Virus record (IMG/VR): IMGVR_UViG_3300028797_000169 | Location: 1,286 to 65,285 of that record | DNA from: a virus | Taxonomy: Duplodnaviria; Caudoviricetes | Strand: one strand, 5' to 3' | DNA length: 64,000 nucleotides | Shown: positions 1 through 24,027 of the stretch, piece by piece | Numbering within the stretch: the first letter of the stretch is position 1 | How the letters are laid out: every line of letters begins with the position of its first letter | The notes under the pieces: generated by a model | What the model was told of the DNA's origin: nothing | Database searches by the model: none | What the model saw: only the letters and a program-made list of their open reading frames with translations | Made by a program: the position numbers and the translations under genes

Positions 1-20
1 AAGCGAAAAGACACGGTCAT

Positions 21-39
21 GTAAGGTGCAAATCCTTAC
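21..39 (+). ncRNA. T-arm-like hairpin, possibly the 3' part of a tRNA or tRNA-like element truncated by the window edge
   Basis: GTAAGG-TGCAAAT-CCTTAC: 6-bp stem with a 7-nt T-loop-like loop, just upstream of a tRNA cluster. No complete cloverleaf visible. Confidence 0.25.
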
Positions 40-239
40 CTGCTATTAAATAGGAATAAACTCCCTCGGGGACTAAGGATATCAACAAGTTCATTTTCTC
101 ATTTCCATTGGCGTTTAGCCCGCATAAATATAAATCAATTTCCCTTAGTTGTCCGTTAAAGTGAATAAGATATGGTTAACAGGTTGTTAAAGTGCATCTA
201 TATTTGCAAAAGGAGTTTTTAATAAAAACATTTTAATAT

Positions 240-313
240 TGAACATTAGTGTAATGGTAGCACAATTGCCTTTGGAGCAATTAGTTTAAGTTCGAACCTT
301 AAATGTTCAGCCA
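240..313 (+). tRNA. tRNA-Gln(UUG)
   Basis: Acceptor TGAACAT/ATGTTCA, anticodon arm AATTGC-CT[TTG]GA-GCAATT, T arm TTAAG-TTCGAAC-CTTAA, encoded G-CCA end. Confidence 0.93.
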
Positions 314-371
314 GAGATTTCTATGTGTTGTGTTCCATAGAATATCTCCTTTCTGATTTGATTTGACACGT

Positions 372-835
372 TGTCGGCGGCGTGGATAAATAATCACCGA
401 CACTTAGCACTTTTGAGTGTGCGACGGGTAGCACGGTGTTGGACGCCTATCGGTAATGAAGTTAGCAACTTTATTGCGCGGTAGTCGTTCGCTAAGACAC
501 AAGAGCGGGTTCGAGGCCCGTAAAAGTGGAACAGGCTTATTTTATAGACAATGGTACTTGCCATTTTTCTGCGCCTGGCAAATTGCAAGTTGTAAAACAG
601 AAAAACGGGATGTAGCCCTAGGTGACTTTTTCGGACACGGCGTTTTCAAGCAAGGTAGCGGGAGGAAAAAGCCGTGATAGTTTTAGAGTGTGAGGTTAAC
701 TCTAAACCGCCTACTCATTGAGAATGGGTGATTGGTCAATAAGTTTAGGTTCTGACGAGGGCTTAAATTTAGTGGTTGATAAGTGTTCGAGGCTAGAAGT
801 GAAGTACAAGCGGCTAGTTGAGGCACATTCTCAAT
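372..835 (+). ncRNA. Candidate large structured ncRNA between tRNA genes (ROOL/GOLLD-like class or novel)
   Basis: No credible ORF or RBS. Dense helices: 372-377/397-402, 453-463/467-477, 505-510/516-521 (TTCGAG loop), 556-561/585-590, 682-689/699-706, 717-726/826-835 (perfect 10 bp, long range), 740-752/759-771. Confidence 0.6.
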
Positions 836-871
836 TTGTTGGAAGATAGTTTAGCGGCTATCTTCCAACAA
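836..871 (+). other. Perfect 14-bp hairpin between the ncRNA candidate and tRNA-Met (processing or boundary signal)
   Basis: TTGTTGGAAGATAG (836-849) / CTATCTTCCAACAA (858-871); no U-tract follows. Confidence 0.6.
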
Positions 872-875
872 TATG

Positions 876-953
876 TGCAGAGGAGTGAAACGGAAAATCA
901 TTCGAGGCTCATAACCTCTGAGATAGTGGGTTCGACTCCCACCTCTGCTCCCA
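876..953 (+). tRNA. tRNA with CAU anticodon (Met; initiator-like 1:72 mismatch)
   Basis: Acceptor GCAGAG/CTCTGC with T876 x T949 mismatch, anticodon loop CT[CAT]AA, T arm GTGGG-TTCGACT-CCCAC, encoded CCA. Confidence 0.88.
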
Positions 954-980
954 CAAGAAGAAGTATCTAACAGTCAAAAT

Positions 981-1057
981 GCTTACTTAGCCCAATCGGC
1001 AGAGGCACAGGACTTAAAATTCTGATAGTGTGGGTCCGACTCCCACAGTAAGCACCA
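981..1057 (+). tRNA. tRNA-Leu(UAA), short variable loop
   Basis: Acceptor GCTTACT/AGTAAGC, anticodon arm CAGGA-CT[TAA]AA-TTCTG, T arm GTGGG-TCCGACT-CCCAC, A-CCA end. Confidence 0.9.
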
Positions 1058-1102
1058 GGAGACACCTCCACATAGTGTCACCTCCTTTTTAAAATTTGTT
1101 TT

Positions 1103-1134
1103 TGACGGCAGGTTTTCTGACAGGCCTGCCGTCA
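1103..1134 (+). other. 10-bp hairpin directly upstream of the RBS of the Cas4-like gene
   Basis: TGACGGCAGG / CCTGCCGTCA inverted repeat, followed by AAGGAG and ATG at 1152. Confidence 0.5.
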
Positions 1135-1151
1135 TATAAAGGAGAAAAACA

Positions 1152-4110: not shown

Positions 4111-4200
4111 TTGCATTCCATTATAACGTGTTGTATAATGTTTACAGTAGAGTAGTATATAGTTAGGCTCTACCATAGAAATCAAATCATTTAAAGGAGG
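4111..4200 (+). promoter_or_regulatory. Sigma-A promoter with conserved early leader (copy 1)
   Basis: TTGCAT-17-TATAAT, GTTTACAGTA, hairpin GTAGAG/CTCTAC, AAATCAAATCA, AAGGAGG. Confidence 0.85.
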
Positions 4201-4208
4201 CTATTCGT

Positions 4209-4598
4209 ATGGCACTATACTGGGATTGGGAAAAGAAGGTTGGTGAGGCAATCTTCGAGAACGTTGAAGGTAAGGTTTACAACATCAACTTGTATCAGGG
4301 AAATGCGTTCCTCATTTTCATCAATGAGTACAAGGAAACAGACAAGGACGGAGTGGAGCACAATATGTATAATCTTCATTCGTTCTTTGCGGACGAGGCA
4401 CACGCCAAGAACTGTTTGGGGTTGACAAAGGGTTGCTCCAATATCTTCGTAGACGGGTTTACGGTTCTGAAGAAGATAAGGCTGGATAAGTCACGTTATC
4501 CCCATACTAGCAAACTTATCAGTATGTTGGTCAAGGCGTTTGATGAGTTGGATATCGAACTTTACAAGGAAGAGGTTAAGGAGGAGGTAGTAGCATGA
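4209..4598 (+). CDS. Early hypothetical protein
   Basis: 129-aa ORF with strong RBS directly behind the promoter. Confidence 0.8.
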   Translation: MALYWDWEKKVGEAIFENVEGKVYNINLYQGNAFLIFINEYKETDKDGVEHNMYNLHSFFADEAHAKNCLGLTKGCSNIFVDGFTVLKKIRLDKSRYPHTSKLISMLVKAFDELDIELYKEEVKEEVVA

Positions 4599-7778: not shown

Positions 7779-7852
7779 TTGTAATCCGTAAGTCCAACAT
7801 GTATAATAATGTTAGATAGAGATAGTCTATCCTGAAAATCAAATCAAAGGAG
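7779..7852 (+). promoter_or_regulatory. Sigma-A promoter with conserved early leader (copy 3)
   Basis: TTGTAA-17-TATAAT, hairpin GATAGA/TCTATC, AAAATCAAATCA, AAGGAG. Confidence 0.85.
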
Positions 7853-7860
7853 AAAAAATT

Positions 7861-8124
7861 ATGCCAAGTAGAGAATTTGTGGAAAGGTCTTGGAATATTC
7901 CATATGACCGGTGGAAGGAATATGCCGTGCCCATTAAGGGTGGGTTTGGTAAGTATTATCGAGTGTGGGCACCTAATAAAACAATGGCAAGACGATTTGC
8001 CGAAGGTGAGATAAATCCTTGGTGTAAAGTTCGTGGTAAGGTAATCGAAATACCTGAAAAGGATTGGGCACTCACATCTTCAAGGTATTATCGTGACCAG
8101 CGTATTAAGGAAGAGGTGACATAA
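7861..8124 (+). CDS. Early hypothetical protein
   Basis: 87 aa, first gene after the promoter. Confidence 0.75.
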   Translation: MPSREFVERSWNIPYDRWKEYAVPIKGGFGKYYRVWAPNKTMARRFAEGEINPWCKVRGKVIEIPEKDWALTSSRYYRDQRIKEEVT

Positions 8125-9153: not shown

Positions 9154-9226
9154 TCCCAAAAATCCTCGTGATATAATGTTTACAGTAAGATAGTGATGTG
9201 GCTATCCAAATCAAATCATTAGGAGG
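9148..9226 (+). promoter_or_regulatory. Sigma-A promoter with conserved early leader (copy 4)
   Basis: TTGTAA-18-TATAAT, GTTTACAGTA, hairpin GATAG/CTATC, AAATCAAATCA, AGGAGG. Confidence 0.85.
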
Positions 9227-9234
9227 TTATTATT

Positions 9235-9603
9235 ATGGCACGTAAAAAGATTAAGGTTCAGGTATATTACTCCATTAAGGATGAGTATGATACCTACGAT
9301 TTCACCGAAGAGGCATTTTTTCAGGCATTTGATATGTGGAGAATGGCTATTCACGACGAGGGTTTATCCCTAATCAACTTCATTAAAATGGGTGGGCGTA
9401 TAGGATTATTTACTTACCGCCACGGATTTTTTAACAGGGAGTTCGGTTCTTATCATCATCAGGTTATCGCACTGGAAAAGGAGTTTGAGAAGTTAGGGTA
9501 TGTACAGGATAAGGACAACCCGAAGGTCAAGAACTGCGTAGCAGACATAGAGTTGGAATATGGTGAGGCCGCTCTGTCGGGAAAATGGGATGATTTCAAA
9601 TAA
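9235..9603 (+). CDS. Early hypothetical protein
   Basis: 122 aa, first gene after the promoter. Confidence 0.75.
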   Translation: MARKKIKVQVYYSIKDEYDTYDFTEEAFFQAFDMWRMAIHDEGLSLINFIKMGGRIGLFTYRHGFFNREFGSYHHQVIALEKEFEKLGYVQDKDNPKVKNCVADIELEYGEAALSGKWDDFK

Positions 9604-10496: not shown

Positions 10497-10778
10497 GTCA
10501 AAGAAATTTGACATTTCCGAAAGTCAAAAATCTGGGAAAATCACAAAAAATTCGAAAAGTCAATAGAAATTTGAGTTAAATTTGTAAGAATTTTTAGTGC
10601 CTTTTGTGCAACGTGTACACAAATAAGTGAATATTGTACTACATATTTGTGCAAATGTACTATTGTACTTCGCTGCAATGGCGCTATACTAGAATTACAA
10701 AGAGCGAAGAGCACAGCGCCAAATTAAAGAGTGCTACTAATAAATCAAATCTAACAAAGAAAAAAGGAGATTTTAATT

Positions 10779-11330
10779 ATGGCAAAGAATACAAAGAAAA
10801 CAGTAGAACTTCAGGGAACAAAGTCCGTACGTCCTAATGGGTCATACGCATATAAGTTAAACGACGTCGTCCTTGCCTGTATCAAAGAGGGGAAAAAGCA
10901 TACGACCGTATATCTTCCTAAGCGCATGGGACAGGACCTTGATAAACTTCAGGCCGACTTCGGGAAGACGCTCGGACAGTACATTAAAGAAAATCCGACG
11001 CATATTAAGAACCCCAAGGACGCATTTTTTGCAAAGATGGACGTCCCTGTAAATGTAAAGATTGAGACGCTCCTTGCAAAGTTGGAATCACTCGGGACTA
11101 AAGTTATCGCACGACAGGAAAAAGAAAAGTCCGAGAAGTCAAAAGCGAAGTCCGAAGCAAAGAACCCCACTCCAGCAAAGAGCGAAGGATCCAAAGCAAA
11201 GTCGGAGACTCCAGCAAGAACGTCCAGCGCATCTGATACAAGAGCGGAAATGTTGGCTCTCCAGCAGGCCGCTATCGAGAAGGTTCGTAAAGAGCACGAG
11301 GAGAAGGCCAGCGCGCCCGTCCAGTCATAA
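10779..11330 (+). CDS. Standalone orphan protein with a K/E/A/S-rich C-terminal half
   Basis: 183 aa; own putative promoter (TTGTAC-16-TATACT at 10663-10690), AAATCAAATC leader, AAGGAG and terminator. Confidence 0.75.
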   Translation: MAKNTKKTVELQGTKSVRPNGSYAYKLNDVVLACIKEGKKHTTVYLPKRMGQDLDKLQADFGKTLGQYIKENPTHIKNPKDAFFAKMDVPVNVKIETLLAKLESLGTKVIARQEKEKSEKSKAKSEAKNPTPAKSEGSKAKSETPARTSSASDTRAEMLALQQAAIEKVRKEHEEKASAPVQS

Positions 11331-23364: not shown

Positions 23365-24027
23365 ATGAACATTAAAGACATTTTTGCTAAAGCAGAAAAC
23401 GGAACTTTGACTTTTGAACAGTTTGAGCAGATTGCTAAGGAAAGCGACGCAAAGTTTACAGACCTCTCCGAAGGTAAGTACGTATCAAAGTCCAAATATG
23501 AGGACGACATTAAGATTAAGGATACATCTATTGAGGAACTCAATAAAACCATCGCACAGAGGGATGTGGATTTAAAGGGCTTGAATGAACAACTTGCAAG
23601 TGCAGGAACCGACGCCACAAAATTATCTGAATTGCAAGGTAATTTTTCCTCACTTCAAAAGAAGTATGAGGATGACATCAAGACTTATCAAACTAAACTG
23701 GCTGACCAACAGTATGAGTTCGCGGTTAAGGAATTTGCTAACAGCAAGAAATTCACTTCTAATGCGGCTAAAAGGGACTTTATTAGTTCAATGCTTGGTG
23801 CAAAACTGACTTTTGACGATAAGCAAAGAATTGTAGGTGCAGAGGACTTTGTAAAGAATTATGGTGAGGATAATGCAGACGCATTTGTGGTTGAAAAGCC
23901 TGAAGAAACACCGCCTGCAGAGCCTAAGCCTCAGTTTGCAAAATCCACAACACCTAAGACACCATCAAGTGAAGGTAAAAGCCTCTTCAACTTTAGTTTT
24001 ACTCCAGTAAGAGGCGACAATAAGTAA
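23365..24027 (+). CDS. Capsid scaffolding protein (GP20-like)
   Basis: GKYVSKSKY, coiled coil, C-terminal PKPQFAKST; directly upstream of the major capsid gene. Confidence 0.8.
   Translation: MNIKDIFAKAENGTLTFEQFEQIAKESDAKFTDLSEGKYVSKSKYEDDIKIKDTSIEELNKTIAQRDVDLKGLNEQLASAGTDATKLSELQGNFSSLQKKYEDDIKTYQTKLADQQYEFAVKEFANSKKFTSNAAKRDFISSMLGAKLTFDDKQRIVGAEDFVKNYGEDNADAFVVEKPEETPPAEPKPQFAKSTTPKTPSSEGKSLFNFSFTPVRGDNK

Follow-up and report, generated by a model that had tools for sequence, protein, structure and literature searches.

The 563-nt spacer between the tRNA-Gln and tRNA-Met genes of a cattle-rumen phage (positions 314-876) probably encodes a real, expressed and so far uncatalogued phage ncRNA, and we consider it likely that this is a structured RNA of about 430 nt, located at about 408-835 on the + strand, whose family is absent from Rfam. 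The window, i.e. the whole stretch of 64,000 nt that was analysed, is nearly the whole of an IMG/VR virus record of 65,285 bp (CheckV completeness 91%), and 97% of its sampled words were found in two DNA runs of one bovine-gut sample. All long open reading frames (ORFs) are on the + strand and include those for an SPP1-type portal protein, RecA and a PD-(D/E)XK nuclease. A first-pass annotation had already placed a large structured ncRNA at 372-835; its structured and non-coding nature was upheld by our analysis, while its start is probably near 408 and not at 372.

The tRNA-Gln gene (UUG; 240-313, +), which encodes its CCA and forms the upstream edge of the spacer, was detected by ARAGORN and by Rfam (64.3 bits), as were tRNA-Met (CAU; 877-951, +) and tRNA-Leu (UAA; 981-1057, +), which together close the operon. 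A promoter-like site (TTAACA, 17 nt, TATATT; 176-204, +) lies 36 nt upstream of tRNA-Gln and is a candidate start of a tRNA/ncRNA operon; it is a consensus match only, such sites being no more numerous in this region than in its shuffles. A weak hairpin with a U-tract (1057-1104, +) was seen 3' of tRNA-Leu. As the promoter-like site, three tRNA genes and the hairpin with U-tract surround the spacer, it was assigned to a tRNA operon. The hairpins previously described as bounding the RNA are both present, namely an AU-rich hairpin directly 3' of the tRNA-Gln CCA (314-348, +; -10.1 kcal/mol, z -3.3) and a perfect hairpin of 14-16 bp, which ends 5 nt before tRNA-Met (inverted repeat I1; 836-871, +; -20.9 kcal/mol, z -7.3) and is not reached by the RNA-derived contigs described below.

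In agreement with the first-pass annotation, the spacer is without a credible coding sequence. Its longest ORF comprises 73 aa (456-677), and the ATG of this ORF is changed to ATA in a 91%-identical, RNA-derived homologue termed variant b, whose substitutions within the frame fall on codon positions 1, 2 and 3 in numbers of 4, 2 and 5, showing no third-position bias. The translations of this ORF and of a 64-aa ORF on the minus strand had no relatives among 5.8 billion proteins. Altogether, no ORF was found that keeps its start and a Shine-Dalgarno (SD) sequence among variants and carries third-position-biased substitutions. An SD-like GGAGG at 662-666 followed by a frame of 15 codons was also considered and was dismissed because the variants destroy the GGAGG.

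Homologues were obtained solely from Logan contigs, compared over 150-1150. Three bovine-gut metatranscriptome runs, all from one study other than that of the window's source sample, yielded one contig each (379, 401 and 405 nt), spanning 436-812, 423-823 and 422-826. Over their full length, without unaligned tails, these contigs represent a 91%-identical homologue that has about 35 differences, and nothing from the RNA runs aligned on the flanks 314-421 or 827-876. The stand-alone contigs, which answer the earlier call for a transcript, provide good evidence for the existence of a homologue in RNA form. They also hint at a stable species spanning roughly 408-835; this is only a hint because contigs cannot prove transcript ends and the RNA runs belong to one study. 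Contig breaks may also result from strain variation, and the uncovered flanks were not counted as proof of RNA ends. With contigs ending at 812, 823 and 826, the stretch 826-835 is probably the 3' limit of the stable RNA. In addition, a DNA run from a third study contained more diverged variants, covering 320-640, 408-545 and 612-836. With regard to habitat, only aligned contigs were considered and not the small word shares seen in runs X3-X7.

The description of the spacer as dense in helices proved accurate, and all helices and repeats listed before could be located. On the + strand, 314-876 gave a minimum free energy (MFE) of -186.3 kcal/mol compared to -155.8 ± 6.2 kcal/mol for shuffles (z -4.9), far better than the shuffled controls that had been named as a test, and the minus strand gave -138 compared to -113.3 ± 5.8 kcal/mol (z -4.3). 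For 408-835 the values were -137.5 and -118.4 ± 4.8 kcal/mol (z -4.0). When folded alone, the 306 nt of 530-835 (-83.4 kcal/mol vs -78.2 ± 4.2 kcal/mol, z -1.2) were no better than shuffles, and 349-407 was not notably structured (z -0.7). The fold signal is real and, because 530-835 alone reaches only z -1.2, uneven; it stems mainly from the two flanking hairpins, a module at 408-529 and a hairpin at 731-780.

Among the individual helices, the perfect 10-bp pair 717-726/826-835 is present as part of a 17-nt, 82% inverted repeat (I3), of which 826-835 (+) forms the 3' arm. By our estimate, about 0.15 complementary 10-mers of this kind would be expected in a stretch of 563 nt, which makes its occurrence only weakly improbable; this helix was absent from every MFE structure, and variant b alters its position 724. 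The 13-bp stem 740-752/759-771 was found inside a long, wobble-rich hairpin of 50 nt (731-780, +; z -4.3), the most variable part of the RNA. From the two nested stems reported, 682-689/699-706 is a perfect 8-bp helix, whereas 655-661/707-714 forms only with a bulge and is not preserved in the variants. Another variable hairpin (639-673, +) carries offsetting 1-nt indels in the variants, at 643 and at 660-664. Both the MFE and the centroid structure of the whole spacer contain an interrupted long-range duplex of 31 bp (350-386/568-603) that encloses the 408-529 module. As its 5' strand lies outside the RNA-derived contigs, this predicted duplex could be confined to a precursor.

To judge covariation, variant b was rebuilt from a difference table listing 34 of the 35 substitutions and both indels. 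The analysis is one pairwise comparison of the window with variant b, on helices predicted from the same sequence, and within this frame it revealed covarying pairs of the kind asked for earlier. Four pairs show two-sided compensatory changes (641/671, C-G to U-A; 737/774, C-G to U-A; 744/767, U-A to C-G; 749/762, G-C to U-G), the first of them in hairpin 639-673 (641 C>U with 671 G>A). Another 14 one-sided substitutions keep their pair in the full-length helices, all via G-U, and five pairs are broken compared to 10.6-10.9 ± 2.1 for random substitutions of the same type (P about 0.005 for each of three reference folds). Hairpin 731-780 accounts for the remaining three two-sided changes (737/774, 744/767 and 749/762) and for seven one-sided changes that keep pairing, one of which, 739 A>C, creates a new 739-772 C-G pair in the variant b fold; two further changes break a pair. 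On the + strand, 131 of 136 predicted pairs remain in variant b, and a minus-strand reading keeps 106 of 136 in the window and 99 in the variant. The predicted pairs include 31 G-U pairs, and on this basis the RNA was assigned to the + strand.

The differences are distributed unevenly. A 94-nt block (525-618, +) is identical in window and variant b (permutation P about 0.001) and contains the stem-loop 532-536/574-578 and 550-555/560-565. A second block (775-826, +) is without a listed difference in variant b, the one unlisted difference of the 35 being able to fall within it; the joint P for both blocks is about 5e-5. This second block holds the second occurrence of GUUCGAGGC, and a pairing of its positions 783-791 with 630-638 is predicted. 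Functional structured RNAs show such a pattern, in which invariant junction blocks adjoin peripheral hairpins that vary but stay paired; here it is based on a single pairwise comparison.

The T-loop-like hairpin at 505-521 (GCGGG-UUCGAGG-CCCGU) had been correctly recognised, but a complete tRNA-like module around this T arm had been missed (M1; 408-529, +; MFE -48.1 kcal/mol when folded alone, P(acceptor) 0.96). The predicted cloverleaf consists of a 7-bp acceptor stem (408-414/522-528, CACUUUU/AAAAGUG), a D arm (419-422/431-434, GUGC/GCAC) with the GG-containing loop GACGGGUA, a single G between D arm and anticodon arm, an anticodon arm of about 27 bp (436-440/496-500 plus 441-490) with a possible 7-nt tip loop UUAGCAA, a variable loop of 4 nt (AAGA) and the T arm (505-509/517-521). 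After the discriminator G529 comes AACA instead of CCA, and the RNA continues for another 300 nt. In its MFE structure M1 thus has the 7-bp acceptor stem, D arm, short variable loop and UUCRA-containing T arm of a tRNA, and it has neither a 5-bp anticodon stem carrying a 7-nt loop nor a CCA or a free end at its 3' side. It was recognised neither by ARAGORN nor by the tRNA model RF00005 of Rfam (E<=10 in the scan of 395-845). With an anticodon arm about 22 bp too long, the module as modelled would be unable to decode. An interpretation as attP core, i.e. a copied tRNA 3' half, was dropped because both acceptor strands exist in M1.

Up to a transcript end at 620 the cloverleaf is the favoured fold (P about 0.7). 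At full length, the MFE folds give up the M1 acceptor stem for alternative pairings, which are more stable by 5-6 kcal/mol; as this lies within the error of such models, the cloverleaf is an inference. Under this model all seven substitutions of variant b in M1 helices keep their pairs, six of them in the long arm; the seventh, 524 A>G, turns the acceptor pair 412-524 from U-A into U-G and concerns a position that is unpaired in the full-length MFE.

The motif GTTCGAGGC indeed occurs twice, at 509 and 785, as had been noted; that it marks a second, degenerate module copy had escaped attention (M2; 678-801, +; direct repeats D1 and D2). The direct repeats 411-421/682-692 and 509-517/785-793 have near-equal spacing (271 and 276 nt), and a global alignment of 405-533 with 675-806 scored 62.5 compared to 37.2 ± 6.9 for shuffles (z 3.7), a score reached by 0 of 300 shuffles. 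Equal spacing and alignment score together indicate that 678-801 is a degenerate second copy of M1. Common to both are UUUU(A)GAGUGUG on the 5' side and GUUCGAGGC..A(A/G)AAGUG on the 3' side; M2 is without the 3' strand of the T stem. At the sequence level this suggests that the RNA evolved from tandem tRNA-derived units.

We were further interested whether the RNA belongs to a known family. A cmscan search with all 4227 models of Rfam 15 detected only the three tRNAs and, elsewhere in the window, a GP20-a motif (RF02991; 23260-23360; 49 bits, gathering score 47.2), which is located immediately upstream of an ORF (23365-24027) in the structural module. Scans with lax filters (E<=10) of 1-1200 and of 395-845 as a 451-nt query added only noise. 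The first-pass annotation had proposed either membership in the ROOL/GOLLD class or a new large phage ncRNA, and had suggested a cmscan against Rfam with ROOL, GOLLD, tmRNA and group I intron in mind; the search gave no match to any of these. ROOL (RF03087; model of 574 positions, threshold 99.1 bits) and GOLLD (RF02032; model of the conserved 3' domain, 416 positions, 150 bits) remained without a match at E<=10 when the whole record was searched, which speaks against the former proposal, and a structured, non-coding element without a match in Rfam 15 agrees with the latter. A tmRNA was found neither by ARAGORN nor by Rfam at the locus: the pair in question is C3-G70 and not G3-U70, there is no terminal CCA, and the ends are not closed by an acceptor stem. 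The RNase P-like strings GGGAGGAAAAAGCC and ACAGAAAAACGGG were rejected, since they occur in the wrong order and no RNase P model matched. Being phage-encoded, ORF-free, adjacent to tRNA genes and variable in a way that preserves pairing, the element occupies the niche of ROOL and GOLLD, which is a statement on genomic niche and not on homology.

In the closest phage that was found, whose neighbouring nuclease shows 69% identity, the nuclease gene follows immediately on tRNA-Gln and the element is absent. No BLAST match to the element was obtained in 15 related IMG/VR records and two metagenome-assembled genomes (MAGs; a Clostridia MAG and a sheep-rumen Bacilli MAG) with related portal genes, and a covariance model of the tRNA-like module found only itself in the 17 records searched (G001-G017). 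Searches by blastn of 50,697 phage records and of 468 genomes from the orders of both portal-gene MAGs gave no usable homologue. Exact and gapped patterns from variant-conserved segments returned nothing usable from IMG/VR, where two matches were unrelated high-GC tRNA arrays, nor did a pattern search of GTDB genomes, and in JGI metagenomes there were four matches, to a 19-mer only. ORF-free gaps in tRNA arrays of related phages (L038:1061-1459, z -1.2; L039:2184-2892, z -2.1) showed no detectable relation to the element. The latter, from a related 104-kb phage record (G003), is a 709-nt gap in an array of 10 tRNA genes; it holds T-loop-like hairpins, has no Rfam match and may be another uncatalogued RNA or decayed tRNAs. 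When the locus was compared with that of the closest relative (L003:3539-4000, L002:295-1524, window 1-1151), two extra ORFs were observed upstream of tRNA-Gln, for a 122-aa protein and a SleB-like cell wall hydrolase, as well as a gain of the RNA, tRNA-Met and tRNA-Leu downstream of it. The tRNA island is thus a hypervariable insertion hot spot and the element a rare accessory. Its absence from the closest phage and 16 other related records makes it a young or narrowly distributed one.

For the origin of the RNA the following route may be envisaged. It would share a transcript, initiated at a promoter near 176-204, with tRNA-Gln, tRNA-Met and tRNA-Leu, would have neither promoter nor terminator of its own, and would be excised by tRNA-processing enzymes, RNase P setting the 5' end by a cut at 407/408 and the 3' side by a cut at tRNA-Met (876/877) with subsequent trimming. 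The earlier suggestion of a release by tRNA processing is thus retained for the position in a tRNA operon, with the processing route as a model. The 5' third would represent a tRNA mimic (acceptor stem, D/T elbow and T loop), and the rest would comprise two invariant core blocks, variable hairpins that keep their pairing, and the decayed second module copy, because of which the RNA was probably born by duplication of tRNA-derived units in the phage tRNA island. As function, a stable tRNA mimic might bind a tRNA-recognising host or phage factor as decoy or scaffold, candidate partners being a tRNA-targeting defence nuclease or a processing, modification or ribosomal site. Such mimicry is suggested with low confidence, as the modelled head keeps the acceptor/T stack and the elbow, could not decode, and belongs to an RNA in a phage tRNA island. 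A point against the reading as a whole is that the RNA contigs run across 529, where a good RNase Z substrate would be cut. A more specific picture, possible but doubtful, is that of an intact tRNA 'head' carried by a 27-bp stalk, to which a conserved body of some 300 nt, derived from the duplicated unit, is covalently attached, with the head docking on RNase P, a tRNA-targeting defence nuclease or the ribosomal E/L1 site, and the body delivering or sequestering something. If true, an RNA-only device for anti-defence or for the control of translation would have arisen inside a tRNA island.

Instead of one RNA, the spacer might give two products, RNase P and RNase Z excising a 122-nt irregular tRNA-like RNA (408-529, with CCA added later) and leaving an RNA of about 300 nt (530-835). 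The 7/5 acceptor-T stack, elbow, discriminator and lack of an encoded CCA would suit RNase P, RNase Z and a CCA-adding enzyme, the invariant block begins at the 3' end of the module (525), and irregular tRNAs in polycistrons have been described (Mukai et al., PMC5389517). We regard this as unlikely, all three RNA contigs being continuous over 529/530, although they may originate from a precursor and would be compatible with later cleavage. Rather unlikely in our view is also a functionless remnant, in which debris of duplicated, decaying tRNA-like genes and a recombination scar (the inverted leader described below) is transcribed owing to its position in the operon and its hairpins resist degradation. 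The visibly decayed M2, the inverted leader fragment at 345-400, the absence of the element from all related phages examined and the unremarkable fold energy of the 3' part (530-835, z -1.2) would all fit such debris. However, the two long invariant blocks adjoin regions of 12-35% divergence, four compensatory pairs and the deficit of pair-breaking changes indicate purifying selection on sequence and structure, and at least three or four diverged lineages from two habitats keep the element.

A cis-acting spacer, with the 350-386/568-603 duplex or the flanking hairpins serving as processing stems like those of rRNA operons, or with 314-407 acting as antisense to an SD leader, seems quite improbable. 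It would account for the presence of the duplex in both MFE and centroid of the whole spacer, and it draws on a peculiarity at 345-400. There the minus strand carries an inverted copy of the phage's recurrent mRNA leader, which could be aligned with seven leaders of + strand genes (compared, e.g., at 4138-4222, 7795-7880, 9170-9250 and 10700-10790). The leader is laid out as hairpin, CAAATCAAATC, AAGGAG, 7 nt and ATGG, with only five codons following at 345-400, and its 10-mer occurs in five copies where 0.44 are expected. On the + strand, 340-372 is the exact antisense of the leader motif plus SD, and of all its duplexes in the window the most stable are those with the leaders at 4163-4207 (-25.9 kcal/mol) and 9188-9232 (-25.0 kcal/mol; mean -9.9 ± 3.3). 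This fragment may be a recombination scar or, as an antisense RNA, be directed at the SD leaders of several operons; unrelated sites, however, reach -23 to -24 kcal/mol with 340-372. Moreover, 349-407 alone folds with z -0.7, the conservation of 604-826 would be left unexplained, and the contigs run through 568-603 and are without 350-421, which argues against the duplex in the abundant species. A very divergent member of ROOL, GOLLD, tmRNA, RNase P RNA or the group I introns, missed by the covariance models, would explain the tRNA-like domain, as in tmRNA, and the niche shared with ROOL and GOLLD in rumen phage tRNA islands (10.1101/2024.12.08.627333). This is very improbable and already largely refuted, as 0 of 4227 models match at E<=10 with lax filters, ROOL and GOLLD have no match when tested directly, and ARAGORN finds no tmRNA, with G3-U70 and CCA missing and the T arm in the 5' third.

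The favoured structured ncRNA of about 430 nt resembles tmRNA (SsrA, including its phage forms) in that a tRNA-like domain with a long helix for an anticodon arm is joined to a large structured body. It differs in having neither the G3-U70 alanine identity pair nor a 3' CCA nor a tag frame conserved in the variant, and both its acceptor strands are found in the 5' third, whereas those of tmRNA form its two ends. Irregular tRNAs, including 'polycistrons of irregular tRNAs', have been described from metatranscriptomes and phages, and allo-tRNAs are defined by 8/4 or 9/3 stacks (Mukai et al., PMC5389517). Like irregular tRNAs, M1 is part of a polycistron with real tRNAs, has a predicted 7/5 stack, a D-loop GG and a UUCRA T loop, and occurs in metatranscriptome assemblies. 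In contrast to these, its anticodon arm comprises about 27 bp where 5 are usual, its acceptor and D stems are separated by 4 nt and not by 2, and it is without CCA and continuous with a further 300 nt of conserved RNA; unlike allo-tRNAs, it is without an 8/4 or 9/3 stack.

To our knowledge, ROOL and GOLLD are the only large phage tRNA-island RNAs in the literature, and their function is unknown despite cryo-EM structures. Both are large, highly structured ncRNAs encoded by phages or prophages, often beside or inside tRNA islands; ROOL was discovered in cow rumen, and GOLLD, which sometimes has tRNAs in its variable 5' region, adjoins tRNA-Met (10.1101/2024.12.08.627333). The RNA described here differs from them in size, with about 430 nt compared to 574 positions of the ROOL model and more than 800 nt of many GOLLDs, in the weak thermodynamics of its non-tRNA-like part, in matching neither model at E<=10, and in being known from one phage lineage and close environmental variants. 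What it has in common with them is a place in a tRNA operon, here that of a rumen phage and immediately before tRNA-Met, and a tRNA-shaped unit on the 5' side. Most likely, an RNA that matches no catalogued family hereby joins the few large phage RNAs beside tRNA genes. It would be visibly built from tRNA-derived modules, with one intact tRNA mimic kept, and would illustrate how tRNA genes of phages, once duplicated and diverged, can give rise to new structured RNAs. Being smaller, it might also be a more tractable case in which to approach a tRNA-binding partner of the head and RNase P as setter of the 5' end. That an unrelated RNA shares the niche of ROOL and GOLLD suggests that such RNAs and tRNA biology are connected in a general way.
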